A stretch of DNA of 64,000 nt from Candidatus Omnitrophota bacterium (GTDB lineage: Bacteria > Omnitrophota > Gorgyraeia > Gygaellales > UBA12090): NCBI GenBank assembly GCA_030674475.1, contig JAUSCZ010000023.1:87819-151818 (forward strand), written 5' to 3'. Each line of letters opens with the position of its first letter. Positions within the stretch are counted from its first letter, which is position 1. The notes below the pieces were generated by a model. It made no database searches, was not told where the DNA came from, and worked only from the letters and a program-made list of their open reading frames with translations. Both the position numbers and the translations under genes were made by a program. This document shows positions 19,051 to 32,941 of this stretch, one piece after another.

Positions 19051-19435
19051 TTTCCCCTGATAATTGACTGGCTACCCTAATTGTGATATTTTTATCGACA
19101 ATGGCAATGGCTGTGATAAACTGGGTGTATAAATTGGCCAAAGTAGCTTTGTTACGAGAGTGGAACTATTAGCGGGGTATTGGGATAGATTGGTAAGGCA
19201 ATGGAAGCGAATGATAAAGTTTTGGATTCGTCAGTCATTTGATAGCATCGAACAAGTTGAAAATAGATACGCGAATTTAACCGTGCCTGTTGAAGTGGCT
19301 TTGCAGTAGTTTCCACGAATCAACTTGTTGATAAGGGTACCAATGAAACTATGGAGAGAAACGAGGGATTAAAATCACTCACATTCAGGCGGTGTCATCA
19401 ATAGGGCATTGTGGCCACTGGGGAGCAAGGATATA

Positions 19436-19465
19436 ACACCTTGGCCTATCGGAAGGCCAAGGTGT
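19436..19465 (+). promoter_or_regulatory. perfect 11-bp-arm inverted repeat (acaccttggcc-tatcggaa-ggccaaggtgt) immediately upstream of the hsdM ribosome-binding site
   Basis: Read directly; followed by AAGGAG at 19476-19481 and GTG at 19489. Confidence 0.4.
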
Positions 19466-19488
19466 TCGCTTGTGCAAGGAGATCTCGA

Positions 19489-21495
19489 GTGACAATCAAT
19501 TTTAAAGAAAGCGCAAATTTTATCTGGGGTATTGCCGATCTTTTGCGCGGTGACTATAAACAGTCCGAATATGGTCGTATAATACTGCCTCTCACGGTTT
19601 TACGGCGTTTGGACTGTGTGCTTGAGCCGACCAAGGAAGCGGTTTTGTCATATCTTCCGCAGACCAAAGGCTTATCTCCGGAAGCCGCTGAGACGGTGCT
19701 TAAGAAAAAAGCGAAGTTGTCATTTTGTAATAAGAGCAAATTTGATTTCCAAAAACTGGTTGCCGACCCGAACGATATCGCCGTTAATCTTCGCAATTAC
19801 ATCAATGGTTTCTCCAAAAATGCCCGCAATATTCTGGAGCATTTCAACTTTGATGACCACATCGAGCGGCTCGATAAATCAAACCTCTTATATATGATCG
19901 TCAAGCGTTTTGCCGAAGTTGATTTGCATCCGAACAAGATCCAAAACATCGAGATGGGCTATATATTTGAAGAGCTTATCCGCAAATTCGCTGACTTATC
20001 AAACGAGACTGCCGGAGAACACTTTACGCCTCGTGAAGTTATTCGGCTTATGGTTAATATTCTCTTTCTAAACGACAAGGATGTCCTTACAAAGAAAGGA
20101 ATCGTTAAAACCTTATATGACCCGGCCTGTGGAACCGGCGGCATGCTTTCTGTGGCAGAAGAATATCTTCGCGAGCTTAACCCCGATGCGGATTTACGCG
20201 TATTCGGTCAAGAGTTAAATCCCGAGTCTTACGCTATTTGCAATTCCGATATGCTCATCAAGGGGCAGAATACCGATCACATCAAGTTTGGCAACTCTTT
20301 TACGCAAGACGGCCTTAAGGATGAAAAGTTTGATTATATGCTTAGCAATCCGCCTTTTGGCGTGGAGTGGAAAAAGATAGAAGAAGAGATTACTAAAGAA
20401 TACGAGCAGTTAGGTTTCTCCGGCCGTTTTGGCGCGGGGTTTCCGCGGATTAGCGACGGGTCTTTTCTGTTTCTACAGCATATGATTTCAAAGATGAAGC
20501 CGGAGAATGGCGGCGCGCGGCTGGGGATAGTCTTTAATGGTTCGCCTCTTTTTTCAGGCGGAGCCGGAAGCGGTGAAAGCGAAATCCGCAAATGGATCAT
20601 TGAAAATGATATGCTTGAGGCCATTATCGCGATGCCGGATCAGCTTTTCTATAACACCGGTATTTCAACTTATATCTGGATTGTTACCAACCGTAAGCTC
20701 AAGGATCGTAAAGGAAGAATTCAACTTATCAACGCGGTCGGATTCTTCAAGAAGATGTCCCGGAGCCTCGGCAACAAACGTAATGAGATCAGCGATGAAC
20801 ATATCGCGGAGGTCACAAAGATTTATGGCGCGTTTAAAAATGGGGAATTCAGCAAGATCTTTCCTAATGAGTATTTTGGGTATACCCGTGTAACGGTCGA
20901 GCGGCCATTGCGGTTGAATTTTCAAACTTCCAATGAGAGGATCTCCCGGCTGGATCAGCAAACAGGATTCGTTAATCTTGCCAAGTCTAAGAAAAAAGGC
21001 AGGGAAGGTATCAAAGAGGTTGAGGAAGGCGAAAAATCACAGAAAGCAATCAAAGCTATGCTTGCGGGAATAGACGGAACTCATTTCTATAAGAACCGGG
21101 AGAAGTTTGTAAGGGTTATGGAAGCGGCTATAGATAAGGCTGAATTAAAGATTAAAGCGCCGGTAATAAAAGCTATTCTTGGGGCCCTTTCGGAGAGGGA
21201 TGAGACAGCGGATGTGTGCAAGGACAGGGATGGTAAGCCGGAACCCGACAGCGAATTACGCGACTGTGAGAATGTGCCGCTCGCAGACAACATTGAAACC
21301 TATTTTAAGCGTGAAGTTCTACCTCACGTGCCGGACGCGTGGATGGACAGAGGCAGGGACAAGGTTGGATATGAGATCAACTTTACGAAGGAATTCTACA
21401 AATACAAACCATTGAGAAGCATCAAGGAGATACAAAAAGACATTTTAGAATTAGAGCAACAAACAGAAGGTTTATTAAAGGAGATTTTGCAATGA
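19489..21495 (+). CDS. hsdM: type I restriction-modification N6-adenine DNA methyltransferase subunit M (ORF is open from 19411; the GTG at 19489 has a perfect AAGGAG box 7 nt upstream)
   Basis: HsdM N-terminal domain (NFKESANFIWGIADLLRGDYKQSEYGRIILPLTVLRRLDCVL), motif I DPACGTGGML, motif IV NPPFG. Confidence 0.9.
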   Translation: MTINFKESANFIWGIADLLRGDYKQSEYGRIILPLTVLRRLDCVLEPTKEAVLSYLPQTKGLSPEAAETVLKKKAKLSFCNKSKFDFQKLVADPNDIAVNLRNYINGFSKNARNILEHFNFDDHIERLDKSNLLYMIVKRFAEVDLHPNKIQNIEMGYIFEELIRKFADLSNETAGEHFTPREVIRLMVNILFLNDKDVLTKKGIVKTLYDPACGTGGMLSVAEEYLRELNPDADLRVFGQELNPESYAICNSDMLIKGQNTDHIKFGNSFTQDGLKDEKFDYMLSNPPFGVEWKKIEEEITKEYEQLGFSGRFGAGFPRISDGSFLFLQHMISKMKPENGGARLGIVFNGSPLFSGGAGSGESEIRKWIIENDMLEAIIAMPDQLFYNTGISTYIWIVTNRKLKDRKGRIQLINAVGFFKKMSRSLGNKRNEISDEHIAEVTKIYGAFKNGEFSKIFPNEYFGYTRVTVERPLRLNFQTSNERISRLDQQTGFVNLAKSKKKGREGIKEVEEGEKSQKAIKAMLAGIDGTHFYKNREKFVRVMEAAIDKAELKIKAPVIKAILGALSERDETADVCKDRDGKPEPDSELRDCENVPLADNIETYFKREVLPHVPDAWMDRGRDKVGYEINFTKEFYKYKPLRSIKEIQKDILELEQQTEGLLKEILQ

Positions 21496-22583
21496 AAAAA
21501 CCATATGCTCCGCAATCATTGCCGCTTGATTCATTAGATTGGGTTAGATTTGTTTCGCTTATAGGACCGGCCAATGCCGAATTGGCGCGCTATGACGGAA
21601 TTCTGCAAGGGATTCTTAACCCTAGAGTACTGCTTTCCCCGCTAACAACCAATGAGGCAGTTCTTTCTTCAAAAATTGAAGGAACGCAGGCTTCGTTACA
21701 GGAAGTTTTGGAGTTTGAGGCATCCCCTGATTTAAGAACAGAGAAGCGAGAAGATATTCTGGAGATTCTCAATTATCGTAAGGCGATGCAGTTGTCCGTA
21801 GATTGGCTTAAGTCCAAGCCCATTACGCTTAATATGATCAAGGATGTTCATAACACGCTTTTAGACAGCGTGAGAGGTAAGGATAAAGCCCGCGGGCAAT
21901 TTCGCAGGTTACAAAATTGGATTGGGAAACCCGGGACGCCCATGGAAGAAGCTATGTATATTCCTCCAGACCCTATGTTTCTCATGGATCATTTATCCAA
22001 TTTTGAGAAATATATCCATTTTGATGAAAAAGACCGGCTTGTTCAGTTAGCCATCGTTCACGCGCAGTTTGAAATTATTCATCCTTTTTTAGATGGGAAT
22101 GGACGTTTGGGGCGTATTCTGATACCACTCTTTCTTTATGAGAAGAAAGCATTAGGGTCGCCGATGTTTTATATCAGTGAATATCTGGAATCCCATCGCG
22201 ATGAATATTACGCCAGGTTGAACGCGATAACCTCCGATGGGCAATGGAACGACTGGATTGAGTTTTTCTTAAAAGCCGTGCTTGAACAGGCAAAGAATAA
22301 TAGCGCAAAGGCAAAGGCTATCTTAGATCTTTACAATGCCAAAAAAGATAAGATTATGGCCGTAACTCATTCGCAATATACAGTTAAAATTTTGGATACT
22401 TTATTCAAGACGCCGATTTTTAATATGACTGATTTTATAAAAATTTCAGGTATTCCCAAAGCAAGCGCAACCCGAATTCTGAATATTCTTAAAAAAGAAG
22501 AAATGCTGGCGGTTTTACATCAAGGGAGAGGGAGATCTCCCGGGGTTATGGCTTTTACCAAATTATTAAAGATTTGTGGCTAA
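21492..22583 (+). CDS. Fic/Doc family protein (AMPylase-type, with C-terminal winged-helix) inserted between hsdM and hsdS
   Basis: Canonical Fic motif HPFLDGNGRLGR; overlaps the hsdM stop by 4 nt. Confidence 0.85.
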   Translation: MKKPYAPQSLPLDSLDWVRFVSLIGPANAELARYDGILQGILNPRVLLSPLTTNEAVLSSKIEGTQASLQEVLEFEASPDLRTEKREDILEILNYRKAMQLSVDWLKSKPITLNMIKDVHNTLLDSVRGKDKARGQFRRLQNWIGKPGTPMEEAMYIPPDPMFLMDHLSNFEKYIHFDEKDRLVQLAIVHAQFEIIHPFLDGNGRLGRILIPLFLYEKKALGSPMFYISEYLESHRDEYYARLNAITSDGQWNDWIEFFLKAVLEQAKNNSAKAKAILDLYNAKKDKIMAVTHSQYTVKILDTLFKTPIFNMTDFIKISGIPKASATRILNILKKEEMLAVLHQGRGRSPGVMAFTKLLKICG

Positions 22584-22866: not shown

Positions 22867-24213
22867 ATGAGTAACAATGATAATTATAGGATTGGAGAAC
22901 ATATCCGTGAAGACGGAAAGAAATATGCGGAGTTTGATACATTGGGTTTTGACTCTACGCGGGAAATTTTCATAAAAGTCATTAAGCCTGCGGGGCCTCC
23001 TCTGACGATTGGACTATATGGCTCGTGGGGAAGCGGAAAAACTGAGATGATAAAGGCGCTGGAAGAGGATTTAAAAACCAGCGACTGTTTAACGTTGATT
23101 TTTGATGCGTGGAAATATAGATATGAATGCAACTTGATTTTGCCTCTTATCTGTGCCCTTCAGCGGGAGCATCTATCTAAAATTGAGGATGCCAAAGATA
23201 GCGCTAAGAAGATAGTAACAAGCGCCGCGCTGGTTATGGCTAATCAGTTTCTTAAAAATAAGATAGGAGTTAATATCGGAGAAGTAAAGATGGCTCTCCA
23301 GACTTATGAGGAGGAATACAAACACTACAAGAAATACGATGATAATGTTGCGTTGATAGAGAAAGAATATAAGGATTTTATTGGGGTCCTTTTGAATAAA
23401 ACAGAGAAGAAAAAATTAACAGTATTCATCGATAATCTTGATCGTTGCCTTCCGGATATTACTGTAAACCTTTTAGAGGATATTTCTAGTTTTCTTTCGA
23501 TTCAAGGGGTGCCATGTATTTACGTGTTAGCAATGGATAAAGAGAATGTTATTAAGGCAATAAATCATCGTTACCCGGATTTTGACGGAATGCATTATTT
23601 AGAGAAAATCGTACATATCGGATTGAAGATGCCTTTGCCACGTAAAAGAGAAAATCACAACTCCAGTTATGGGACATATCATTTTCTCAAAAGATATGAG
23701 TGGGGTAAAAAATATGAAGCAGTTTCAAAATCTGGGGATTCAAGGGATAAATTGTTTGAAAGATTAGTTGCTATCGATAATGTGTTTGGAGGTGACCTTT
23801 TAGGAAATCCTCGGCGTGCAGAGCGTATCGTGAATAAGCTGATGATGTTAGAGATAATGGGGTTATTCCAGGCAGAAAGAAGCCATGACGACGTCTCTAT
23901 GTTGATTTTTTTATTGCTTCTTTGCGAGTATTTCCCGAAAATTTACGAGTCTTTAAAAGATAATGCGGATTTTAAATATCTGTTGGAAAATTTACAGATG
24001 TGCAAACAAAAAGAAACCACGCCATTTAATCAAAGAAAAGAAAGAGAAAGGCTTGAACCAAACTCGCGCATTCCAAACGAGATTATCTTTAATGCATATT
24101 GCGACGATGAAAAATTTTTCCATTTTATTAGAGACTTTGCAGATTTGGCAAATATTAATGATCTGCCAAAAAGGTTGATGGAAATAAAAAGTAATTTGGG
24201 TTATATCGGATGA
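22867..24213 (+). CDS. KAP-family P-loop NTPase
   Basis: Walker A GLYGSWGSGKT near the N-terminus, Walker B-like VFIDNLDRC, 448 aa; typical KAP NTPase architecture. Confidence 0.7.
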   Translation: MSNNDNYRIGEHIREDGKKYAEFDTLGFDSTREIFIKVIKPAGPPLTIGLYGSWGSGKTEMIKALEEDLKTSDCLTLIFDAWKYRYECNLILPLICALQREHLSKIEDAKDSAKKIVTSAALVMANQFLKNKIGVNIGEVKMALQTYEEEYKHYKKYDDNVALIEKEYKDFIGVLLNKTEKKKLTVFIDNLDRCLPDITVNLLEDISSFLSIQGVPCIYVLAMDKENVIKAINHRYPDFDGMHYLEKIVHIGLKMPLPRKRENHNSSYGTYHFLKRYEWGKKYEAVSKSGDSRDKLFERLVAIDNVFGGDLLGNPRRAERIVNKLMMLEIMGLFQAERSHDDVSMLIFLLLLCEYFPKIYESLKDNADFKYLLENLQMCKQKETTPFNQRKERERLEPNSRIPNEIIFNAYCDDEKFFHFIRDFADLANINDLPKRLMEIKSNLGYIG

Positions 24214-24229: not shown

Positions 24230-25474
24230 ATGAAAAGGTATCCTGTATATAAAAATTCGGGGATTGAGTGGATTGGGAAAGTGCCGCAAGATTGGCAAGT
24301 TAATCGCCTGAAAACAGTCTGTACTTTTACCTATGGAGATTCTTTGGCGGATGAAGATCGGATTGAGGGCGGCATCCCTGTTTATGGCTCAAACGGAATT
24401 GTCGGTTATCATAACAAAGCAATTACCCATAAGCCGTGCATTATTATCGGGCGCAAAGGTTCATACGGCAAAGTGAATTTTTCGCAAACAGAATGCTTCC
24501 CAATTGATACTACCTATTTTGTTGATGATCGTTCAGCAAAATGTGATTTGAAATGGCTTAGCTATGTTTTGCCGCTTTTAGAACTGGATAAATTTTCCAA
24601 GGACACCGGCGTTCCAGGGCTTAATCGCGAAGATGCGCATGATAAAAGAGTGCCAATTCCTGAAAGTGAGGTTAAAAAAGTCATTACTGATTATCTTAAC
24701 CGCAAGACGGCGCAGATTGATGACCTGATTGCTAAAAAAGAGCGCATGATTGAGCTTCTCAAGGAGGAGCGGACGGTGATTATCAATCAGGCTGTGACAA
24801 AGGGGCTTAATCCCAAAGCTGAAATGAAAGAATCTGGCATTGAATGGTTAGGTAGGGTACCGAAACATTGGAGACTAAAACGGCTGAAATATGTCGTCAA
24901 TATCAATCCAGTAAGACCAAATACAATTTCAGAAGAATCAAAGGTTATTTTTATAGCCATGGAATCTATGAGTACTGACGGAACTTATGACAATTCTGTT
25001 ATGCGTTCATATTTAGAAGTAAAGACCGGATTTACTTATTTTGCTGAAGACGATGTAATTTTTGCTAAAATAACACCATGTTTTGAAAATGGCAAGGGGG
25101 CATTACTCCGTAATTTAGGATCTGCCATTGGCTTTGGCTCAACAGAATTTCATGTTTTGCGTTCAGTGAGAAATGAAACAATTCCAGAATATTTGTATTT
25201 TCTTACAATCTCTGGGTTATTCCGGAGATTAGGCGAAGCATTTATGCAGGGCGTGGCTGGACAGAAAAGAGTAACAAACGATTTTGTGCAAAATTTTCTT
25301 ATTGGAGTGCCTCCGATTGATGAGCAAGAGGCCATTTCCTCTTTTCTTGCAGATAAAATAAGAAAAATCGATGCGCAAGTGGCGCGAGAACAAAAATCAA
25401 TCGAGCTGCTCAAAGAATACCGCACTTCTTTGATCTCTGAAGTAGTAACGGGGAAAATCTGTTTATGCGAGTAA
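24230..25474 (+). CDS. hsdS: type I restriction-modification specificity subunit S (two target-recognition domains)
   Basis: Two variable TRDs separated by the conserved central repeat (TAQIDDLIAKKERMIELLKEERTVIINQAVTKGL) and C-terminal repeat (IRKIDAQVAREQKSIELLKEYRTSLISEVVTGKI). Confidence 0.85.
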   Translation: MKRYPVYKNSGIEWIGKVPQDWQVNRLKTVCTFTYGDSLADEDRIEGGIPVYGSNGIVGYHNKAITHKPCIIIGRKGSYGKVNFSQTECFPIDTTYFVDDRSAKCDLKWLSYVLPLLELDKFSKDTGVPGLNREDAHDKRVPIPESEVKKVITDYLNRKTAQIDDLIAKKERMIELLKEERTVIINQAVTKGLNPKAEMKESGIEWLGRVPKHWRLKRLKYVVNINPVRPNTISEESKVIFIAMESMSTDGTYDNSVMRSYLEVKTGFTYFAEDDVIFAKITPCFENGKGALLRNLGSAIGFGSTEFHVLRSVRNETIPEYLYFLTISGLFRRLGEAFMQGVAGQKRVTNDFVQNFLIGVPPIDEQEAISSFLADKIRKIDAQVAREQKSIELLKEYRTSLISEVVTGKICLCE

Positions 25475-25483
25475 TGTTACGAG

Positions 25484-26692
25484 GTGTTGATTATGCCACA
25501 TAGTATTCCGGCACTTGTTACGCCATCGGTTATGAGGTGGGCGCGAGAACAGGCAGGGTTTGACATCCCGACTGCTGCGCATCGTATTGGACGTTCAGAA
25601 GCAGATATTCGAGCATGGGAAAATGAAGCGACAACGACAAGGCCAACTTTGGCGCAAGCTCGTAAAGCAGCTGAAGTATATCGTAGGGCACTGGCAGTTT
25701 TTTATCTATCGGAACCACCCAAAGGATACCAAGTTATTAGGGACTTTAGACATTTAACAGATGCCAGTCTGCAAGCATTTAGTCCTGAATTGATGCAGGT
25801 AATTAATTTATTAGAATATAGACAAGAGTGGTTAAGAGAGTGGCGGATTGAAGAAGGGGAAAAAAAGATTGATTTTATTGGGTCTATAGCGATTACTATG
25901 GCGCCAGATAAAGTCGCTGGTGAAATAAAAGATAAGCTAGGCGTTGATTTCAAAGAGCATTTTAAGCGTCGGACTCGCGAGGATACATTATTGTTATGGG
26001 TTCGTTATGCAGAAGCTTTAGGCATTAATATCTGTCGTCAAGGCGAAATTGCATGTGAAGAAGCTAGGGGCTTCGTACTAACGGATGAATACGCCCCCTT
26101 TGTGTATATTAATAGTTCTGATGCAAAGGTGGCCCAACTTTTTACCTTAGTTCATGAGTTGGTACATTTGTGGCTTAACTTGTCAGGTATTTCTAATCTT
26201 GAAGGTATTGGGCGCACTGGGAAGACAGAAAACGACCGGATTGAAATATTTTGCAATAAAGTCGCATCGTTAGTATTGCTGGATGATAAACTATTCTTAG
26301 AGAAATGGGCAAAAACAGATACAAACGACCCTCTTGAAAAAAAGATAGCAGATGTCGCTAACATTGCAAAGGTTAGCGATGAAGTAGTTGCTAGGCGTCT
26401 TTTAGACAAGAGTATAATTACCATTGATAAATACGTTGATTTACGCAGGCAGTTTCAAGAGCGCTGGATACAGCATAAAAAAGACGCAAAGATTAGAAGA
26501 CAGGATTCCAAGGGTTATCCTTCTCCGCACTTAATGGCTGTCTTGGGAAATGGAAGGCTTTTTACCACAGCTGTCTTAGATTCATATTCTGGGGGATTTT
26601 TGTCGAGTACAATCGCGGCTAGTTTGTTAAATGCGAAAGTTAACAATTTCCAGAAGCTATCCGTATATGCCGGTATGGGTGAGGGGAAATAA
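25484..26692 (+). CDS. ImmA/IrrE-family zinc metallopeptidase fused to an N-terminal Xre-type HTH (COG2856-like)
   Basis: HEXXH motif HELVHLWL, N-terminal HTH region, 402 aa. Confidence 0.7.
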   Translation: MLIMPHSIPALVTPSVMRWAREQAGFDIPTAAHRIGRSEADIRAWENEATTTRPTLAQARKAAEVYRRALAVFYLSEPPKGYQVIRDFRHLTDASLQAFSPELMQVINLLEYRQEWLREWRIEEGEKKIDFIGSIAITMAPDKVAGEIKDKLGVDFKEHFKRRTREDTLLLWVRYAEALGINICRQGEIACEEARGFVLTDEYAPFVYINSSDAKVAQLFTLVHELVHLWLNLSGISNLEGIGRTGKTENDRIEIFCNKVASLVLLDDKLFLEKWAKTDTNDPLEKKIADVANIAKVSDEVVARRLLDKSIITIDKYVDLRRQFQERWIQHKKDAKIRRQDSKGYPSPHLMAVLGNGRLFTTAVLDSYSGGFLSSTIAASLLNAKVNNFQKLSVYAGMGEGK

Positions 26693-27186
26693 TGGACTTG
26701 AATAAGAAATACTGTCTTGATGCCAATGCATTTATTGAGCCATGGAATAAATATTTCACTATTAACCGGTGTCCTGGATATTGGGATATTTTAGAGGATT
26801 TGGGCAAGAAGCTAATTATTTTTTGCCCTGATCAAGTTAAGCGAGAAATTGATAGGGTCGACGATGGTCTAAAATCGTGGCTCGATGCGAGGCATTTCTT
26901 CTTTAGGCAAGAAACAGAGGTTGTACAGCAACATGTGCGTACGATTTTAAAAGCATTTCCTCAGTTAATCAATGTTGGGGCAAATCGGTCTATGGCCGAT
27001 CCATGGGTTATTGCTCACGCAATGGCTGAACAGGCGGTTGTAGTAAGTAAAGAATATCTGGTGCGTCCGGGACAGAAGAGTGCACAAATAAAGGTCCCAG
27101 ATGTGTGTAAGCATTTCAAGATCGCCTGTATTAATGATTTTAGTTTTATTGATGAGCTTGGCATAAAATTTAAGGCTAGTATTTAA
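26692..27186 (+). CDS. DUF4411-family protein (recalled as a predicted PIN-like nuclease partner of ImmA/IrrE; not verified)
   Basis: 164 aa; start overlaps the ImmA/IrrE stop (ATGA). Family assignment is from memory of the sequence pattern and the usual ImmA/IrrE pairing. Confidence 0.45.
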   Translation: MDLNKKYCLDANAFIEPWNKYFTINRCPGYWDILEDLGKKLIIFCPDQVKREIDRVDDGLKSWLDARHFFFRQETEVVQQHVRTILKAFPQLINVGANRSMADPWVIAHAMAEQAVVVSKEYLVRPGQKSAQIKVPDVCKHFKIACINDFSFIDELGIKFKASI

Positions 27187-27619
27187 ATTTGCGGATGAGG
27201 CAGTTTAAGTGCTATTTATAGTTTTTTTGAAGGGTTAATGAGGAGCTGGGGGGATTGATAAAATGAAAAGGGGCTGTTAGGTTCGGGCCAACAACCCCTC
27301 AGAAATGCCGACGGCTTTACTTGGTAAAGCCTTTATATAGTATATCATAGCATAGCATATATGCAAAAAAATAAAATTTTAGTGGATGGTGCAAAGTTGT
27401 TATTGAAATACGTGCATCAACAATGCAAGAAATATTACTCCAACCGCTGGTTGGAGTAATCGGCTGAGATGTTAGCTATATTTTGTTTTGGGCCTGATTT
27501 TTTATGTAACGCGATGTAACTGAAAGTGTTTAAAAATATAAACATTATTACAATACATTGATAATAAATGAGTTATGAGCATAAAGCATGTATCTTATAT
27601 GTAATTTTTGAAATAATTT

Positions 27620-30600
27620 ATGAGGCTTAGAATGGTTTCAATTATTAACGAAAAAGCTTTTGAAGAATCCATCGAACAAAGCCTGATTGATCATGGCGGC
27701 TATGTGAAGGGCGATCCGAATAATTTCAGTCGGGATCTGGCGATTGATCAAGCGGTCCTGTTTCAGTTCATCAAGGATACCCAGAAGAATGTTTGGGATA
27801 GCTTGACGGCTATCCATGGCGCGGATGTTGAAAAGAAGTTTTTATATCGTCTCAATCAAGAACTGGACGCGCGTGGAATGCTTGATTGTTTGCGCCGCGG
27901 CGTCACTGATTATGGCAAGAAAATCATGCTCGCCTATTTTAAGCCGGTCAGCAAATTAAACCCGGAAACCCAGAAACTGTTCGATAAAAACATCCTCACC
28001 GTTACCCGGCAGGTTCATTACAGCACCAAAGATGAAAGCTCGATAGACATGCTTTTGTCTATCAACGGCCTTCCTGTGGCTACCATTGAGTTAAAGAACC
28101 CGTTTACCGGTCAGGATGTGGATGATGCCAAGCGGCAGTATAAATATGACCGCGACGAGCGTGAGCTTTTGTTTCAGTTTAAGAAGCGCGCCCTTGTCCA
28201 CTTTGCCGTGGATACGGATGTTATTTACATGACTACGCGCCTTCAGGGGAGCAAGACAAGGTATTTGCCTTTTAATAAAGGCTATAACAAAGGTTCCGGG
28301 AATCCCCCGAATCCAAGCGGCCATAAGACAGCGTATTTATGGGAAGTCGTCTTGGTAAAAGATAGCTGGATGGATATCTTGGGAAGATTTTTGCATTTAG
28401 AAGTTGAAGAAAAGGCTTTTGATGGTAGAAAGTTCAAGATTGAGACACTGATATTCCCGCGCTATCACCAGCTTGATAGCGTCCGGAAGCTTTCCTCCGA
28501 TGCTCTTGCAAATGGAGCAGGAAAGAATTATTTGATTCAACACAGCGCCGGGAGCGGAAAAAGCAATTCTATCGCATGGCTTGCCTATCATTTGGCGGGC
28601 CTGTATGACAAAGGCGATAAGCGGATATTTGACGCAGTGATTGTGATCACCGATCGCATTGTTCTGGATAAGCAGTTACAGGATACGATTTATCAATTTG
28701 AGCACAAGTTAGGGGTGGTTGAGAAGATTGACAAAGATTCTACCCAATTGGCTCAAGCTCTCACCAGCGGAACGAATATTATTATCACCACGCTTCAAAA
28801 ATTTCCCTTTGTTTTGGATAAGGTTGGGGCATTGCCTAGGCGAAATTACGCGGTTATTGTTGATGAGGCGCATAGCTCGCAGGGTGGCGAATCCGCTAAA
28901 AAAATGAAAGACGTTCTTTCGGCCCTTGATAAAACCGAGATCGTATCGGAGAAGGCCGATGAGGACGATGATATTGAAGATGAAATCCGTGAATCCATGC
29001 TTAAACGGGGCCCTCGGCCAAATTTGAGCTTCTTTGGATTTACCGCAACACCCAAAGCAAAAACGCTGGAGTTTTTTGGACAAAAGGGCATAGACGGCAA
29101 ACCACAACCATTTCATCTTTATTCTATGCGGCAGGCGATCGAAGAAAGATTTATTTTTGATGTCCTTGAAAACTACACTAGCTATCAAACATTTTTCCAG
29201 TTGTCCAAGAAGATCGAAGACGACCCGAATATGAATAAGAAAAAGGCCGCCTGCGCGATTGCGCGCTTCTTGACGCTCCATCCGTATAACTTGGCGCAGA
29301 AGACCGAGGTCATGATTGAGCATTTCCGGCAGGTCACTATGAAAAAGATCGGTGGTAAAGCTAAAGCGATGGTAGTTACGGCTTCGCGCGAGCATGTGGT
29401 GCGGTATAAACATGAGTTTGACCGTTATCTAAAAGAAAAAGGGTATAAAGATATAAAGGCTCTCGTTGCTTTTTCCGGAAAAGTTTTATTGGATGGAATT
29501 CCTCCGGAATATACCGAAGAGGGTATTAATACCTATATTGATAAACAAGGGCAAACCAGATATGTTAGGGAAAAGGAGTTACCTGGGAAGTTTGCTACTT
29601 CTGAATATCAGATTTTACTTGTAGCAGAAAAATATCAGACCGGCTACGATGAGCCGCTTTTGCATACCATGTATGTGGATAAGCGGCTTGACGGCGTTAA
29701 AGCGGTGCAGACGATGAGCCGTTTAAACAGGACGTGTCCGGGTAAAGAAGATACATTTATCTTGGACTTCGTTAATAAGCGCGAAGACATATTAGCGGCT
29801 TTCCAGCCATATTATGAGCAGACCCAGTTAAGCGATGTTACGGATCCGAACAAGCTTTACGACCTCAAAACCAAGCTGGATTCGTTTAGGGTGGTATATC
29901 AATCAGACATTGATGCATTCTGTGTCGTATTCTTCAGGAATAAAGAATTACAGACGAAGCGCGAGCATGCTCAATTGAATTCAATAGTAGATGTGGCGGT
30001 TGAGCGGTTTAAGGTAATTGAAAAAGATGAGCACAAAGAAGATTTTGTCAATACCTTGGGCGTATTTGTTCGGCTGTATGCGTTCTTGGCGCAGATTATG
30101 CCCTTTCAGGATATTGAGCTCGAGAAATTCTACGCCTATTCCCGACTATTGTTGAAAAAACTTCCGGGGCCTGACCGCGGCGAAAGGTATCATCTTGGCG
30201 ATGAGGTCGCTCTTGAGTATTACCGCCTGCAAAAAATAGCTGATGGCAAAATTCAATTGCAAAAGGATTCGGGTGCGGCTATCGAGCCGATTTCAGAGGC
30301 CGGAACAAAGAAAGACAAAGACGAATACGCCTTGTTGTCCGAAATAATCAATCTTCTTAATGACAGATTCGGGACTGATTTTACCGAAGCCGACAAGCTT
30401 TTCTTCGATCAGATTGAAGAAGAAATGGTTATGGATGAGAAATTAGGCGTTCAAGCCAAGACCAACACAATGGATAATTTCAAATACGGGTTTGAAGATG
30501 TGTTTATCGCGAAGCTTGTTGACCGGATGGATCAGAATCAGGATATCTTCAACAAAATTATGGATGACAAAGCTTTCGCGGCTGTCGTAAAAGACTATTT

Positions 30601-31150
30601 ATTGAAAAAGGTTTACGATCGCTTAAATAAGGACAGTGGCGATCAGCCAGAACGTCCGTTGTTTTTTAAAGATGTGAGTCCGGATGAAGAGGTTGCGGAG
30701 GACCAGAAGTATGTTGATTTTCTGCCGGTATATTCGCTCCAGGCTGTAGCGACAAGCTTTGGTAAGGAAGAGCACGTGGAAATGCTTGGATGGAAGAAAA
30801 TAAAAAATAAACGGCTGAATAAAGACATGTTTATTGCTCAGGTTGTTGGTAAGTCAATGGAGCCGACAATTTTGGATGGTAGTTTTTGTCTTTTCCGCTT
30901 TGAGCGGGGCGGCTCGCGCAATGGTTTGGTGGTGCTTGTCGAATCTCGGTTGGTTACCGATCCTGAAACCAGCCAGAAATTTACAATCAAGCGCTATAAA
31001 AGTGAAAAAGAAACTTTGCCCGATGGCGGGTGGAGGCACAAGCGCATAATACTCTCACCTGATAACAAAGACTTTAAAGATATCACTCTGGAGAATGTGA
31101 GCGGTGATGATTTTAGAATCGTAGCAGAATTTGTAGAGGCATTATCTTAA
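27620..31150 (+). CDS. hsdR: type I restriction enzyme R subunit with a C-terminal LexA/UmuD-like S24 serine peptidase domain fusion
   Basis: SF2 helicase motifs (GSGKS Walker A, VIVDEAHSSQ DEAH box, GFTATP, QTMSRLNR). The C-terminal ~110 aa carry S24 motifs: VVGKSMEPTILDGSFCLF (Ser nucleophile), FTIKRYK (catalytic Lys), RIILSPDNKDF...GDDFRIVAEFVEAL. Confidence 0.85.
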   Translation: MRLRMVSIINEKAFEESIEQSLIDHGGYVKGDPNNFSRDLAIDQAVLFQFIKDTQKNVWDSLTAIHGADVEKKFLYRLNQELDARGMLDCLRRGVTDYGKKIMLAYFKPVSKLNPETQKLFDKNILTVTRQVHYSTKDESSIDMLLSINGLPVATIELKNPFTGQDVDDAKRQYKYDRDERELLFQFKKRALVHFAVDTDVIYMTTRLQGSKTRYLPFNKGYNKGSGNPPNPSGHKTAYLWEVVLVKDSWMDILGRFLHLEVEEKAFDGRKFKIETLIFPRYHQLDSVRKLSSDALANGAGKNYLIQHSAGSGKSNSIAWLAYHLAGLYDKGDKRIFDAVIVITDRIVLDKQLQDTIYQFEHKLGVVEKIDKDSTQLAQALTSGTNIIITTLQKFPFVLDKVGALPRRNYAVIVDEAHSSQGGESAKKMKDVLSALDKTEIVSEKADEDDDIEDEIRESMLKRGPRPNLSFFGFTATPKAKTLEFFGQKGIDGKPQPFHLYSMRQAIEERFIFDVLENYTSYQTFFQLSKKIEDDPNMNKKKAACAIARFLTLHPYNLAQKTEVMIEHFRQVTMKKIGGKAKAMVVTASREHVVRYKHEFDRYLKEKGYKDIKALVAFSGKVLLDGIPPEYTEEGINTYIDKQGQTRYVREKELPGKFATSEYQILLVAEKYQTGYDEPLLHTMYVDKRLDGVKAVQTMSRLNRTCPGKEDTFILDFVNKREDILAAFQPYYEQTQLSDVTDPNKLYDLKTKLDSFRVVYQSDIDAFCVVFFRNKELQTKREHAQLNSIVDVAVERFKVIEKDEHKEDFVNTLGVFVRLYAFLAQIMPFQDIELEKFYAYSRLLLKKLPGPDRGERYHLGDEVALEYYRLQKIADGKIQLQKDSGAAIEPISEAGTKKDKDEYALLSEIINLLNDRFGTDFTEADKLFFDQIEEEMVMDEKLGVQAKTNTMDNFKYGFEDVFIAKLVDRMDQNQDIFNKIMDDKAFAAVVKDYLLKKVYDRLNKDSGDQPERPLFFKDVSPDEEVAEDQKYVDFLPVYSLQAVATSFGKEEHVEMLGWKKIKNKRLNKDMFIAQVVGKSMEPTILDGSFCLFRFERGGSRNGLVVLVESRLVTDPETSQKFTIKRYKSEKETLPDGGWRHKRIILSPDNKDFKDITLENVSGDDFRIVAEFVEALS

Positions 31151-31181: not shown

Positions 31182-31209
31182 TTGATTTAAAAGGTTTATT
31201 TGTTATAAT
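31182..31209 (+). promoter_or_regulatory. sigma70-like promoter TTGATT-N16-TATAAT upstream of the ABC-F gene
   Basis: ttgatt at 31182-31187, tataat at 31204-31209. Confidence 0.45.
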
Positions 31210-31306: not shown

Positions 31307-32941
31307 ATGATTTCAGTTAATAATGTGTCATTACAATTCGGTCAGCGTAAGCTGTTCTCAGAGGTCAGCATTGTTTTTTCGCCGGGCAACTGCTATGGCT
31401 TGATTGGCGCCAATGGTTCGGGTAAATCCACATTTTTAAAGATTCTTTCCGGAGAGGTTGATTCGTCCGCGGGAGAAGTTGCTATTGCTCCGGGTAAGCG
31501 GCTCTCTACCTTAAGACAGGATCAATTTGCCTTTGATGAATATACGGTATTAACCACGGTGATTATGGGGCATAAAAAGCTTTATGAAATTATGCTGGCC
31601 AAAGACGCGATATATTCTAAAACGCCTTTTACCGACGCTGACGGAATGCACGCCGCGGAGCTGGAGGGAGAGTTCGCTGAACTAGAGGGATGGAACGCTG
31701 AATCCGACGCGGCTAAGTTGTTAAGCGAACTGGGTATTGAGGAATTCCTGCATACGGCGCAAATGAAAACGCTTGAGGCCGGGCAGAAGGTGCGAATATT
31801 GTTGGCCCAGGCCTTATTTGCTAATCCCGATATCCTGCTCTTGGATGAGCCTACCAATTATCTGGATGTTGAGTCGAGTATGTGGCTGGAGGAATTTCTC
31901 TACGCTTTTGAGAATACCGCTATCATTGTCTCGCACGACCGGCATTTCTTAGATAAAGTCTGCACCCATATCGCGGATATTGATTTCGGTAAGATCCATC
32001 TCTATCCCGGCAATTATACTTTTTGGTCGGAGGCCAGCCAGCTGGCGGCGCGCCAGCGCAGTGAATCTAACAAAAAGATAGAAGAGCGGCGCAAGGAATT
32101 GAAAGATTTTATTATGCGTTTTTCCGGCAACGCCTCTAAGGCCCGCCAGGCCACCAGCCGCAAAAAAACCCTGGAAAAGCTTACTATAGAGGACATTGAA
32201 CCTTCTTCGCGCAAATACCCCTATATCAATTTTGAACCGGAGCGCGAGGCCGGCAATGACCTCCTGAATATAGATCATCTGTTTAAAACAGTTGACGAGC
32301 AGAGTATGTTTGAGCGGTTGAATATTACCATTCGCAGGGGTGATAAGGTTGCTTTTGTCGGCCCAAATGACCTGGCCAAGACCATACTTTTTCAGATTTT
32401 GATGAATGAGGCTCAATCGGATAGCGGCACTTTTAAGTGGGGCTCTTCTACCAAGCGGGCGTATTATCCCAGAGATAATTCCGCGTTTTTTAGCCGGGAC
32501 CTGACCATTATTGATTGGCTCAGGCAGTATTCCGCCAACACGGAACAGGAGTTTATCCGCGCCTTCTTAGGCCGGATGCTTTTTTCCGGGGAAGAATCGC
32601 TTAAGCCGGTAACTGTTTTATCCGGAGGAGAGAAGGCGAGGTGTATGTTAGCCCGGATGATGGTTTCTCAGCCTAATGTGCTTATTCTGGATGAACCGAC
32701 CAATCATCTGGACTTGGAAGCGATCACCTCCTTAAACCGAGGCCTGGAGAAATTCCGCGGGACCATCTTGTTTTCTTCCCACGATCATCAGTTAGTCCAG
32801 ACGGTAGCCAACCGCATTATCGAGATTACCCCTAAGGGATATATTGACCGGGTGGACACCACCTATGATGAATACCTGGCCAATGAGCAGATAAAACAAC
32901 AGCGCCATGAACTATACGCGGGGCGCCCGCTAAGTAAATAA
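31307..32941 (+). CDS. ABC-F family ATPase (two nucleotide-binding domains, no TM domain)
   Basis: NBD1 Walker A GANGSGKST, Walker B ILLLDEPTNYLD. NBD2 signature LSGGEKAR, Walker B ILILDEPTNHLD. NBD2 Walker A (GPNDLAKT) and NBD1 signature (LEAGQ) are degenerate. Confidence 0.8.
   Translation: MISVNNVSLQFGQRKLFSEVSIVFSPGNCYGLIGANGSGKSTFLKILSGEVDSSAGEVAIAPGKRLSTLRQDQFAFDEYTVLTTVIMGHKKLYEIMLAKDAIYSKTPFTDADGMHAAELEGEFAELEGWNAESDAAKLLSELGIEEFLHTAQMKTLEAGQKVRILLAQALFANPDILLLDEPTNYLDVESSMWLEEFLYAFENTAIIVSHDRHFLDKVCTHIADIDFGKIHLYPGNYTFWSEASQLAARQRSESNKKIEERRKELKDFIMRFSGNASKARQATSRKKTLEKLTIEDIEPSSRKYPYINFEPEREAGNDLLNIDHLFKTVDEQSMFERLNITIRRGDKVAFVGPNDLAKTILFQILMNEAQSDSGTFKWGSSTKRAYYPRDNSAFFSRDLTIIDWLRQYSANTEQEFIRAFLGRMLFSGEESLKPVTVLSGGEKARCMLARMMVSQPNVLILDEPTNHLDLEAITSLNRGLEKFRGTILFSSHDHQLVQTVANRIIEITPKGYIDRVDTTYDEYLANEQIKQQRHELYAGRPLSK

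Follow-up and report, generated by a model that had tools for sequence, protein, structure and literature searches.

A LexA/UmuD-type S24 peptidase module at the C-terminus of an Omnitrophota type I restriction subunit recurs on many restriction and defence nucleases

The self-cleaving S24 proteins LexA, UmuD and cI are transcription factors and a polymerase subunit, and S24 self-cleavage is stimulated by RecA-ssDNA-ATP or by high pH. Cleavage of LexA exposes residues that direct it to ClpXP and Lon (PMC6590174), and in LexA-like proteins the ClpXP C-degrons adjoin the autocleavage site (PMC5742171; PMC7101444). Proteolysis is also the basis of type I restriction alleviation, which is DNA damage-induced and acts via degradation of HsdR (by ClpXP) in Types IA and IB; host self-protection from restriction after DNA damage, recombination or entry into a new cell has been worked out only for EcoKI-type enzymes, where it depends on ClpXP. 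Here we describe a type I restriction R subunit (HsdR) that carries a LexA/UmuD-type S24 module at its C-terminus. It is encoded in a stretch of 64,000 nucleotides from Candidatus Omnitrophota bacterium (assembly GCA_030674475.1, contig JAUSCZ010000023.1, positions 87,819 to 151,818 of the forward strand), hereafter called the window.

The open reading frame (ORF) at 27620..31150 (+), whose coordinates we verified by translation, encodes a protein of 1176 amino acids (aa) and contains all of the peptides quoted in an earlier note, which had read this part of the window from its letters as an HsdR ending in an S24 domain. In the full-length protein Pfam places HSDR_N at residues 117-210, SWI2_SNF2/ResIII at 280-436, T1R_D3-like at 581-717 and Peptidase_S24 at 1056-1171. 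The HsdR body (aa 1-1011; 27620..30652, +) is composed of a PD-(D/E)xK nuclease, an SF2 motor and a helical C-terminal region, and its motifs are intact: D138..E-L-K159 in the nuclease, a GSGKS Walker A motif from aa 311 and DEAH from aa 415. The PADLOC REase_I models match it with an E value of 6.7e-38. The NCBIfam model TIGR00348 gives 201.3 bits (E 2.7e-59), which is under the curated cutoff of 284.55, and the T1RH-like_C domain that is common in HsdR is absent according to Pfam. We treat the protein as HsdR despite this shortfall because of its nuclease and SF2 motor domains, the PADLOC match and the company of hsdM and hsdS genes; it belongs to a divergent HsdR family, and its nearest homologues come from metagenome-assembled genomes (MAGs) of Omnitrophota.

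The S24 module itself covers approximately 165 residues (aa 1012-1176; 30653..31147, +). The earlier note had taken it to be about 110 residues long and to begin at 30700, which proved too short: it starts 47 nt upstream of that position. It opens with an N-terminal linker motif, RPLFFKDVSPDEEVAEDQKYVDF (30653..30721, +; family consensus LFFSDVIPDE..KY), which is conserved across different fusion partners, is modelled by AlphaFold2 (AF2) with a predicted local distance difference test score (pLDDT) of 83-96 and sits about 30 residues ahead of the putative cleavage site. Next comes the cleavage-site strand LPVYSLQAVATSF (aa 1035-1047; 30722..30760, +), in which P1036, A1044 and F1047 are near-invariant. 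The putative scissile bond, assigned by homology, lies between Ala1044 and Thr1045 (30749..30754, +), so that the S24 catalytic core of 132 aa (30752..31147, +) would be the predicted cleavage fragment. The candidate nucleophile Ser1079 (30854..30856) is part of a GKSMEP motif (30848..30865, +), and the candidate general base Lys1124 (30989..30991) is part of a TIKRY motif (30983..30997, +). The hallmark GxSMxPxIxDGD proposed in the earlier note therefore stands as regards GKSMEP with its Ser, together with the TIKRY Lys, but the motif ends in DGS and not in DGD.

Assignment to the S24 family is supported at the level of profiles and of predicted structure. The Pfam Peptidase_S24 profile (PF00717; gathering cutoff 23.3 bits), named in the earlier note as the test of its reading, scores 29.6 bits against the whole protein and 35.7 bits (E 7.6e-9) against the last 159 aa alone, and all of the partner-fused relatives tested also pass the cutoff. 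The match is well outside what chance would give. When the family profile was compared with residues 68-202 of E. coli LexA using hhalign, the probability was 95.2% (E 2.5e-8), and the alignment pairs GKSMEP with GMSMKD (Ser1079 with Ser119) and TIKRY with TVKRL (Lys1124 with Lys156); the LexA sequence used in this comparison agrees with the LexA segments obtained from sequence matches to the PDB. Those sequence-only matches to LexA in the PDB are marginal (hmmsearch, E 0.004-0.25), the NCBIfam LexA model does not match the window protein, and the NCBIfam UmuD model NF007621 reaches 16 bits against a cutoff of 110. An alignment-based AF2 model of aa 1012-1176 has a pLDDT of 83.2 and a predicted template modelling score (pTM) of 0.77. 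In a Foldseek search of the PDB with this model, LexA, the lambda cI C-terminal domain and UmuD' account for every one of the best 36 matches, and signal peptidases come next; template modelling (TM) scores to LexA reach 0.74, and LexA fragments that include the cleavage-site region align over about 150 columns. The model places a strand at residues 1034-1043, followed by a loop at 1044-1049 that is its sole low-pLDDT stretch, and low confidence at this point fits the expectation for a mobile cleavage loop. We are all but certain of the homology and the fold of the S24 domain.

In order to see whether the residues of catalysis are kept, we examined two sets of relatives. The close relatives (120 sequences) retain Ser1079 in 119/120 and Lys1124 in 116/116 cases; in a wider set of 227 sequences, composed of 50%-identity cluster representatives and genome ORFs and spanning 38-90% identity, the Ser is present in 223/225 and the Lys in 224/226. 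The expectation of the earlier note that homologues bearing the extension would keep the dyad is thus borne out, and both residues are among only 19 invariant columns out of 165 (alignment A1). Position 1044 is Ala in 195 and Cys in 23 sequences of the 227, and at position 1045 Gly is present in 154, Thr in 49 and Ser in a further 15. A motif census counts 126 Ala-Gly, 46 Ala-Thr, 22 Cys-Gly and 15 Ala-Ser sites. The majority of the family therefore appears to carry either a LexA-type bond (Ala-Gly) or Cys-Gly, which we take to be the UmuD-type scissile bond. The Ala-Gly or Cys-Gly site that the earlier note had anticipated is accordingly found in the relatives, but in the window protein and its subclade the putative bond is Ala1044-Thr1045 and P2 is Val; the Ser-Lys pair is invariant in this Ala-Thr subclade (the 120 close relatives), as are A1044 and F1047 of the site. 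The distance from P1 to Ser is 35 residues in the window protein and 35-38 in most family members, and the standard numbering of LexA gives 35 as well (Ala84 to Ser119). The cleavage loop could not be aligned to LexA residue by residue: the hhalign and PDB hmmsearch alignments begin about 12 residues past the site, and the site is therefore assigned from its motif, its spacing and its conservation in the family. The predicted new C-terminus after the cut is AAA in 119 sequences, AVA in 41, AAC in 22 and VAA in 15, and the exposed tail would read ...LQAVA in the window protein and ...LKAAA in most relatives. On this basis the module family is probably catalytically competent, and for the Ala-Thr protein of the window we lean only slightly towards competence.

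The module has in common with LexA the fold, the GxSM Ser and the (V/I)KR(L/Y) Lys, and its putative cleavage site likewise precedes the Ser by about 35 residues; the AAA^G consensus of the family is similar to VAA^G of LexA, and the predicted small-nonpolar new C-terminus is like the latent ClpX degron of LexA. They differ in what lies N-terminal to the S24 domain, a nuclease/motor of about 1000 aa here and a winged-helix DNA-binding domain in LexA, as well as in the Ala-Thr site of the window protein, in the extra conserved linker motif and in the spacing from Ser to Lys, which is 45 in the module as opposed to 37 in LexA owing to an 8-residue insertion (DPETGG-like). Many residues are near-invariant across the 227 relatives and absent from LexA (W1058, C1090, R1100, D1114, Y1126, S1128, K1130, W1138, H1140 and N1149). 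Together with the insertion they suggest that the module has a further surface for binding or answers to a trigger that is not RecA, and with the conserved linker motif they mark it as a distinct S24 subfamily. UmuD and UmuD' likewise share the S24 fold, with Cys-Gly in 22 members of the module family, and they offer a precedent for cleavage that alters activity and does not merely destroy the protein. In UmuD, however, a short N-terminal arm is removed from a small protein with a umuC partner, while here a large enzyme would be severed from the domain; the window protein has 1176 aa and no umuC-like gene is present among the window neighbours examined. The phage cI-type repressors and IrvR have the same order of N-terminal effector, cleavage site and S24 core, and IrvR demonstrates that cleavage need not depend on RecA and can be linked to a C-degron for ClpXP (PMC7101444). 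They are transcription factors, though, whereas the identified partners of the module are nucleases or helicases.

The earlier note had suggested a survey of HsdR homologues for the same extension, and we carried it out using the HsdR body alone (aa 1-1011) as query. The nearest 120 HsdR clusters, at 63-95% identity, fall into two length classes: 50/120 have the module and are about 1140-1180 aa long, and about 70 lack it and are close to 1000 aa. These classes are interleaved in the similarity ranking, and the S24-less proteins stop where the module begins in the window protein. For example, the S24-less HsdR P0129 (1001 aa, 88% identical) ends at about aa 1005-1010 of the window protein, and no S24 gene was found downstream of it. 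In one long HsdR with S24 (P0181) the domain had been missed by the precomputed Pfam annotation. The module thus appears to be appended behind the natural C-terminus of an otherwise complete type I R subunit. We also considered whether standalone S24 genes of 125-200 aa act as separate partners, and rejected this, since short entries named 'S24 family peptidase' turned out to be C-terminal pieces of hsdR or DUF2075 helicase genes that were split by frameshifts or gene-calling, or pseudogenised (loci L002, 5421..8492; L003, 4935..8534; L004, 5653..8032). In L003 the in-frame ORF encodes a full HsdR-S24 of 1199 aa, of which the stored gene call covers only 177 aa. A compositionally foreign insert was likewise rejected: the G+C fraction is 0.439 in the HsdR body and 0.436 in the module, which is no signal.

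The module is not a peculiarity of one HsdR, a point that goes beyond the earlier note, and it is found on many other nuclease types. A search with the last 226 aa retrieves 159 proteins whose S24 part is 47-93% identical and whose other domains differ. A scan with one genome per species gave at least 585 module loci, and an exhaustive profile search gave 409 clusters at 50% identity (E <= 1e-30), in which the module is nearly always located at the extreme C-terminus; in a few relatives (P0262, P0298, P0302, P0320 and P0377) it is followed by 60-200 aa without a Pfam match. All of the 80 loci that were retrieved, out of the at least 585, come from MAGs, and they include Omnitrophota, Bacillota, Planctomycetota, Elusimicrobia, Nitrospirota, Acidobacteriota, Chloroflexi, Myxococcota, Bacteroidetes and Verrucomicrobiota, with one locus labelled only 'archaeon'. 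Database names for the proteins include 'DEAD/DEAH box helicase family protein', 'type I restriction enzyme R subunit' and 'S24 family peptidase'.

Partners were named by Pfam scans of the full extracted ORFs. They include HsdR proteins of the window's family; a second HsdR family, with T1RH-like_C; Type ISP enzymes with the order Mrr_cat_2-ResIII-Helicase_C-coupler-Eco57I methyltransferase-Type_ISP_C; MmeI/Eco57I-like Type IIG/L enzymes; ResIII helicases with TnsA-like or RE_endonuc nucleases; proteins composed of a DEAD helicase, MZB and a restriction endonuclease; SLFN-group-3/DUF2075 helicases of about 795 aa; small Mrr_cat, AlwI, DpnI_C, LlaJI, PLD/NgoFVII, McrBC, HNH and GIY-YIG proteins; and one HsdS. 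The module is therefore carried by Type I (two unrelated HsdR families), ISP, IIG/L, IIS, IIM, III-like and IV enzymes. A rough census took in 226 module-bearing sequences with 60 aa or more upstream; its largest class is SLFN/DUF2075 with 52, followed by the second HsdR family with 29 and the HsdR family of the window with 25. Nearly all partners are defence enzymes that cut DNA or translocate. The possibility that the subfamily is a mere branch of helix-turn-helix (HTH) repressors was rejected, because an HTH was found in only 4/49 of the partners left unclassified by similarity. One second-family HsdR-S24 (L008, 6207..10274) has a DUF559/MTES_1575 endonuclease inserted between HSDR_N and the motor (aa 340-441), and so has a second nuclease domain.

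Across the two HsdR families, identity is only 25% in the body but about 65% in the module, which indicates that unrelated enzymes have exchanged the module together with its linker motif. In the HsdR family of the window, module and body co-diverge, with mean identities of 67% and 77% and r = 0.77. Judged by these comparisons, the module of about 165 aa behaves as a mobile C-terminal plug-in on many restriction and defence nucleases. Phage-encoded decoy copies were sought and rejected: none of 50,697 phage records contains the module, and the three matches in IMG/VR comprise two host-type enzymes and an ordinary repressor (L088, 31% identical). A distant copy is present in a cultured organism, Halomonas sp. 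PA16-9 (NZ_CP040452.1; L089, 4959..7429), 36.8% identical and with an IAA^G site, and it could give an experimental entry point. There an ORF for a 686-aa SLFN/DUF2075 helicase overlaps the S24 ORF by 70 nt in a different frame, so that the two ORFs probably represent one fusion broken by a frameshift, be it through a sequencing error, in a pseudogene or, conceivably, by programmed frameshifting. Its neighbours include PIN_8 and AbiEi/AbiEii genes.

As the earlier note had supposed, the fusion seems to be undescribed. The full-text literature that we searched has no description of S24 fusions to HsdR or to other restriction enzymes, and no PADLOC model matches the module. As far as we found, the near-exclusive and recurrent pairing of one S24 subfamily with restriction nucleases has not been described previously, and this holds even if the outcome of cleavage is activation or if the module serves in dimerisation. 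We are dealing with a known self-cleaving switch in an undescribed context, and probably with a new regulatory role.

What this role might be, for which the earlier note had suggested proteolytic control of restriction or, alternatively, DNA-damage sensing, can be pictured by analogy with LexA. A trigger would move the cleavage loop into the active site; the likeliest trigger, following LexA, UmuD and cI, would be a filament of RecA on single-stranded DNA that arises from the damaged or cut chromosome of the cell itself. Ser1079 would then cut Ala1044-Thr1045 in the same chain, which would free the 132-aa core and leave HsdR with the small-nonpolar C-terminus ...LQAVA. The new tail would serve as a latent degron for ClpXP-type proteases, as in LexA, and with the destruction of the nuclease/motor subunit restriction would be alleviated. 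The module would thus act as a built-in circuit breaker against self-restriction, and under a RecA trigger this would amount to negative feedback, in which cuts in the cell's own chromosome make the signal that removes the nuclease. The identity and fold of the domain, its dyad and the conservation of the latter, the LexA-like putative site with its spacing and tail, and the mobility and range of partners of the module are read from the data; we infer the cleavage itself, its trigger and the outcome of degradation and shut-off. Degradation is favoured over other outcomes because of the precedent of LexA-type C-degrons, the Ala-rich predicted tails, the alleviation of type I enzymes by HsdR proteolysis and the need for restriction to be on by default. 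The whole chain, from triggered self-cleavage to shut-off, is one that we put forward tentatively. More tentative still is its extension to the family, according to which a portable self-destruct fuse has been domain-shuffled onto Type I, ISP, II, III-like and IV nucleases and defence helicases, detects, by way of RecA filaments or another signal, that the chromosome of its own cell is damaged, cuts itself off and exposes a degron that removes the nuclease.

Several observations weigh against this shut-off reading. The predicted product 1-1044 resembles a normal full-length HsdR, so cleavage alone should not inactivate the enzyme and shut-off hinges on the degradation step. The window protein has Thr at P1' and Val at P2 where the family majority has Gly at P1', and we know of no characterised S24 protein that cuts Ala-Thr. 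The LexA structures matched by Foldseek include the G85D and G91D mutants, which were chosen for structure determination as non-cleavable. The strongest E. coli C-degrons end in Ala-Ala (PMC10862746), and the ...AVA tail does not, which makes the degron argument weaker for the window's subclade than for the AAA^G majority; moreover, the protease pocket requires small P3-P1 residues too, so that the tail is not independent evidence of a degron. The insertion of eight residues and the invariant residues that LexA lacks imply that the trigger may not be RecA. A few module matches come from archaeal MAGs, and to our knowledge Archaea carry RadA in place of RecA and are without ClpXP. Finally, the steps of cleavage, RecA dependence and degradation are drawn from the behaviour of better-known S24 proteins.

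The same features can be fitted to other explanations. Cleavage could switch the enzyme on: an uncleaved S24 module would keep the nuclease or motor latent, e.g. by blocking M2S assembly or the nuclease, and cleavage would free an active enzyme of normal length, comparable to the conversion of UmuD to UmuD'. The N-terminal product, which would end about 35 residues past the ends of S24-less orthologues, should indeed be a competent HsdR, and RecA-stimulated cleavage of UmuD is an S24 precedent for activation (PMC6590174). Protease-activated pro-nucleases recur in antiviral systems (PMC12799240), and many partners of the module are helicase-nucleases of the defence-effector type and not classical restriction-modification enzymes. 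The module is, however, also found on complete Type I, ISP and IIG/L restriction-modification enzymes with methyltransferases of their own, and restriction must hit incoming DNA before it is methylated, so that a default-off enzyme awaiting RecA filaments would defend poorly; for these reasons we consider activation unlikely. A slow self-cleavage that needs no signal could instead work as a constitutive timer, with the degron shortening the half-life of the R subunit so that restriction lags methylation on entry into a new host. IrvR autocleaves constitutively and independently of RecA and is then removed via an embedded ClpXP C-degron (PMC7101444), delayed restriction in a new host is a known need that is met by ClpXP for EcoKI (PMC3874165), and the module has spread horizontally among many phyla. 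The strong extra conservation in the module nevertheless suggests a specific partner or signal and not a simple clock, and we regard a timer as improbable.

Other explanations dispense with regulated self-cleavage of the enzyme. For Type I, ISP, III and IIS enzymes a double-strand break takes two nuclease domains or two enzymes that collide, and the module could couple two nuclease subunits for this purpose, or dock the enzyme on RecA filaments, with cleavage perhaps lost or vestigial in the Ala-Thr subclade. The C-terminal domain of LexA does hold dimerisation determinants (PMC3159453), and the site in the window protein is the non-canonical Ala-Thr. A pure dimerisation domain would need neither dyad nor site, though, and yet both catalytic residues persist in close relatives, the Ala-Thr subclade included (Ser 119/120, Lys 116/116, both among only 19/165 invariant columns), A1044 and F1047 are invariant in that subclade, and the family majority keeps A/C-G; a structural role of this kind is also unlikely. 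The conserved Ser-Lys dyad would equally serve a tethered protease that cuts a different protein, for instance an anti-restriction protein from a phage or a regulator of the host, and S24 proteins can cleave in trans, as in the intermolecular cleavage of UmuD. This is very improbable given that nearly all members keep an internal LexA-type site at LexA-like spacing and that neighbours vary between loci, with no conserved neighbour gene as a candidate substrate. A chimeric assembly, or read-through fusing hsdR to a separate S24 gene, might be suspected from the split genes and 'standalone' S24 proteins in databases, but these are tails of fragmented hsdR or helicase genes, the same in-frame architecture is present in about 50 independent HsdR clusters from dozens of genomes and different studies, and body and module have the same G+C fraction; the chance of an artefact is negligible.

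The shut-off reading may also be compared with defence systems in which proteolysis is the control. Alleviation of EcoKI by ClpXP is proteolytic, specific to the R subunit and inducible by damage (PMC3874165), and it is the physiological role proposed here for the module. In that case an external protease recognises the translocating complex and there is no autoprotease domain, while the proposed switch would be built in and portable between enzyme types. In CapH/CapP and ImmR/ImmA, DNA damage is sensed by a protease tied to a defence locus, and a CapP/CapH-like HTH-M78 gene is in fact present in the window operon; those proteases are metalloproteases that cut a repressor in trans and thereby control transcription, and M78 is found in only 4/85 module loci. 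In nuclease-protease pairs, too, a defence nuclease is under proteolytic control, an arrangement that unrelated systems have repeatedly acquired (PMC12799240). The protease described there is a separate trypsin-like enzyme that activates a pro-nuclease, in contrast to an S24 Ser-Lys autoprotease in cis.

If the shut-off reading is right, a self-cleaving module hard-wired into nucleases of nearly every restriction type would represent a new general regulatory principle, and the LexA/UmuD/cI paradigm, which covers transcription factors and a polymerase subunit, would come to include immune effectors that cut DNA. This would provide an enzyme-independent answer to restriction autoimmunity and a route of alleviation for families that ClpXP does not control. 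The module would also constitute a compact, transferable and signal-responsive switch of protein stability.

The genomic neighborhood of the fusion gene is that of a type I operon interrupted by other genes. Both hsdM (19411..21495, +) and hsdS (24230..25474, +) are located upstream of hsdR on the same strand and in the same operon; hsdM is 83-87% identical to genes annotated as HsdM_N/N6_Mtase in loci L001 and L002 and has an NPPF motif in its translation, and hsdS has two stretches of Pfam Methylase_S. Other defence genes split the operon between 21492 and 27186. These are a Fic gene (21492..22583; PADLOC SoFic, E 4.6e-112), a KAP NTPase gene (22867..24213; PDC-S20/QatA/PifA models), an HTH and Peptidase_M78 gene that is CapP/CapH-like (25484..26692; RmrA, capP and capH models) and, directly after the latter and with one base common to both, a DUF4411 gene (26692..27186). 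A functional tie of the S24 module to the HTH-M78/DUF4411 pair was considered and rejected, as homologues of the two occur in 4/85 and 2/85 module loci, respectively. No tmRNA, which was sought for comparison with the host ssrA tag, was found in the window.

The 433-bp gap between the DUF4411 gene and hsdR (27187..27619) contains three hairpin or terminator-like sites, at 27268..27300 (-), 27434..27460 (-) and 27313..27331 (+), as against 0.3 expected from shuffles, and hsdR may have a promoter of its own in this gap. An antisense ORF of 234 aa within hsdR (28709..29413, -) was taken to be a chance ORF. Just past the hsdR stop there is a sigma-70-like promoter (31182..31209) with 10/12 matches and an extended -10 TG, ahead of a gene for an ABC-F ATPase (31307..32941), and an ABC-F gene 72% identical to it is found in the module-bearing locus L029.

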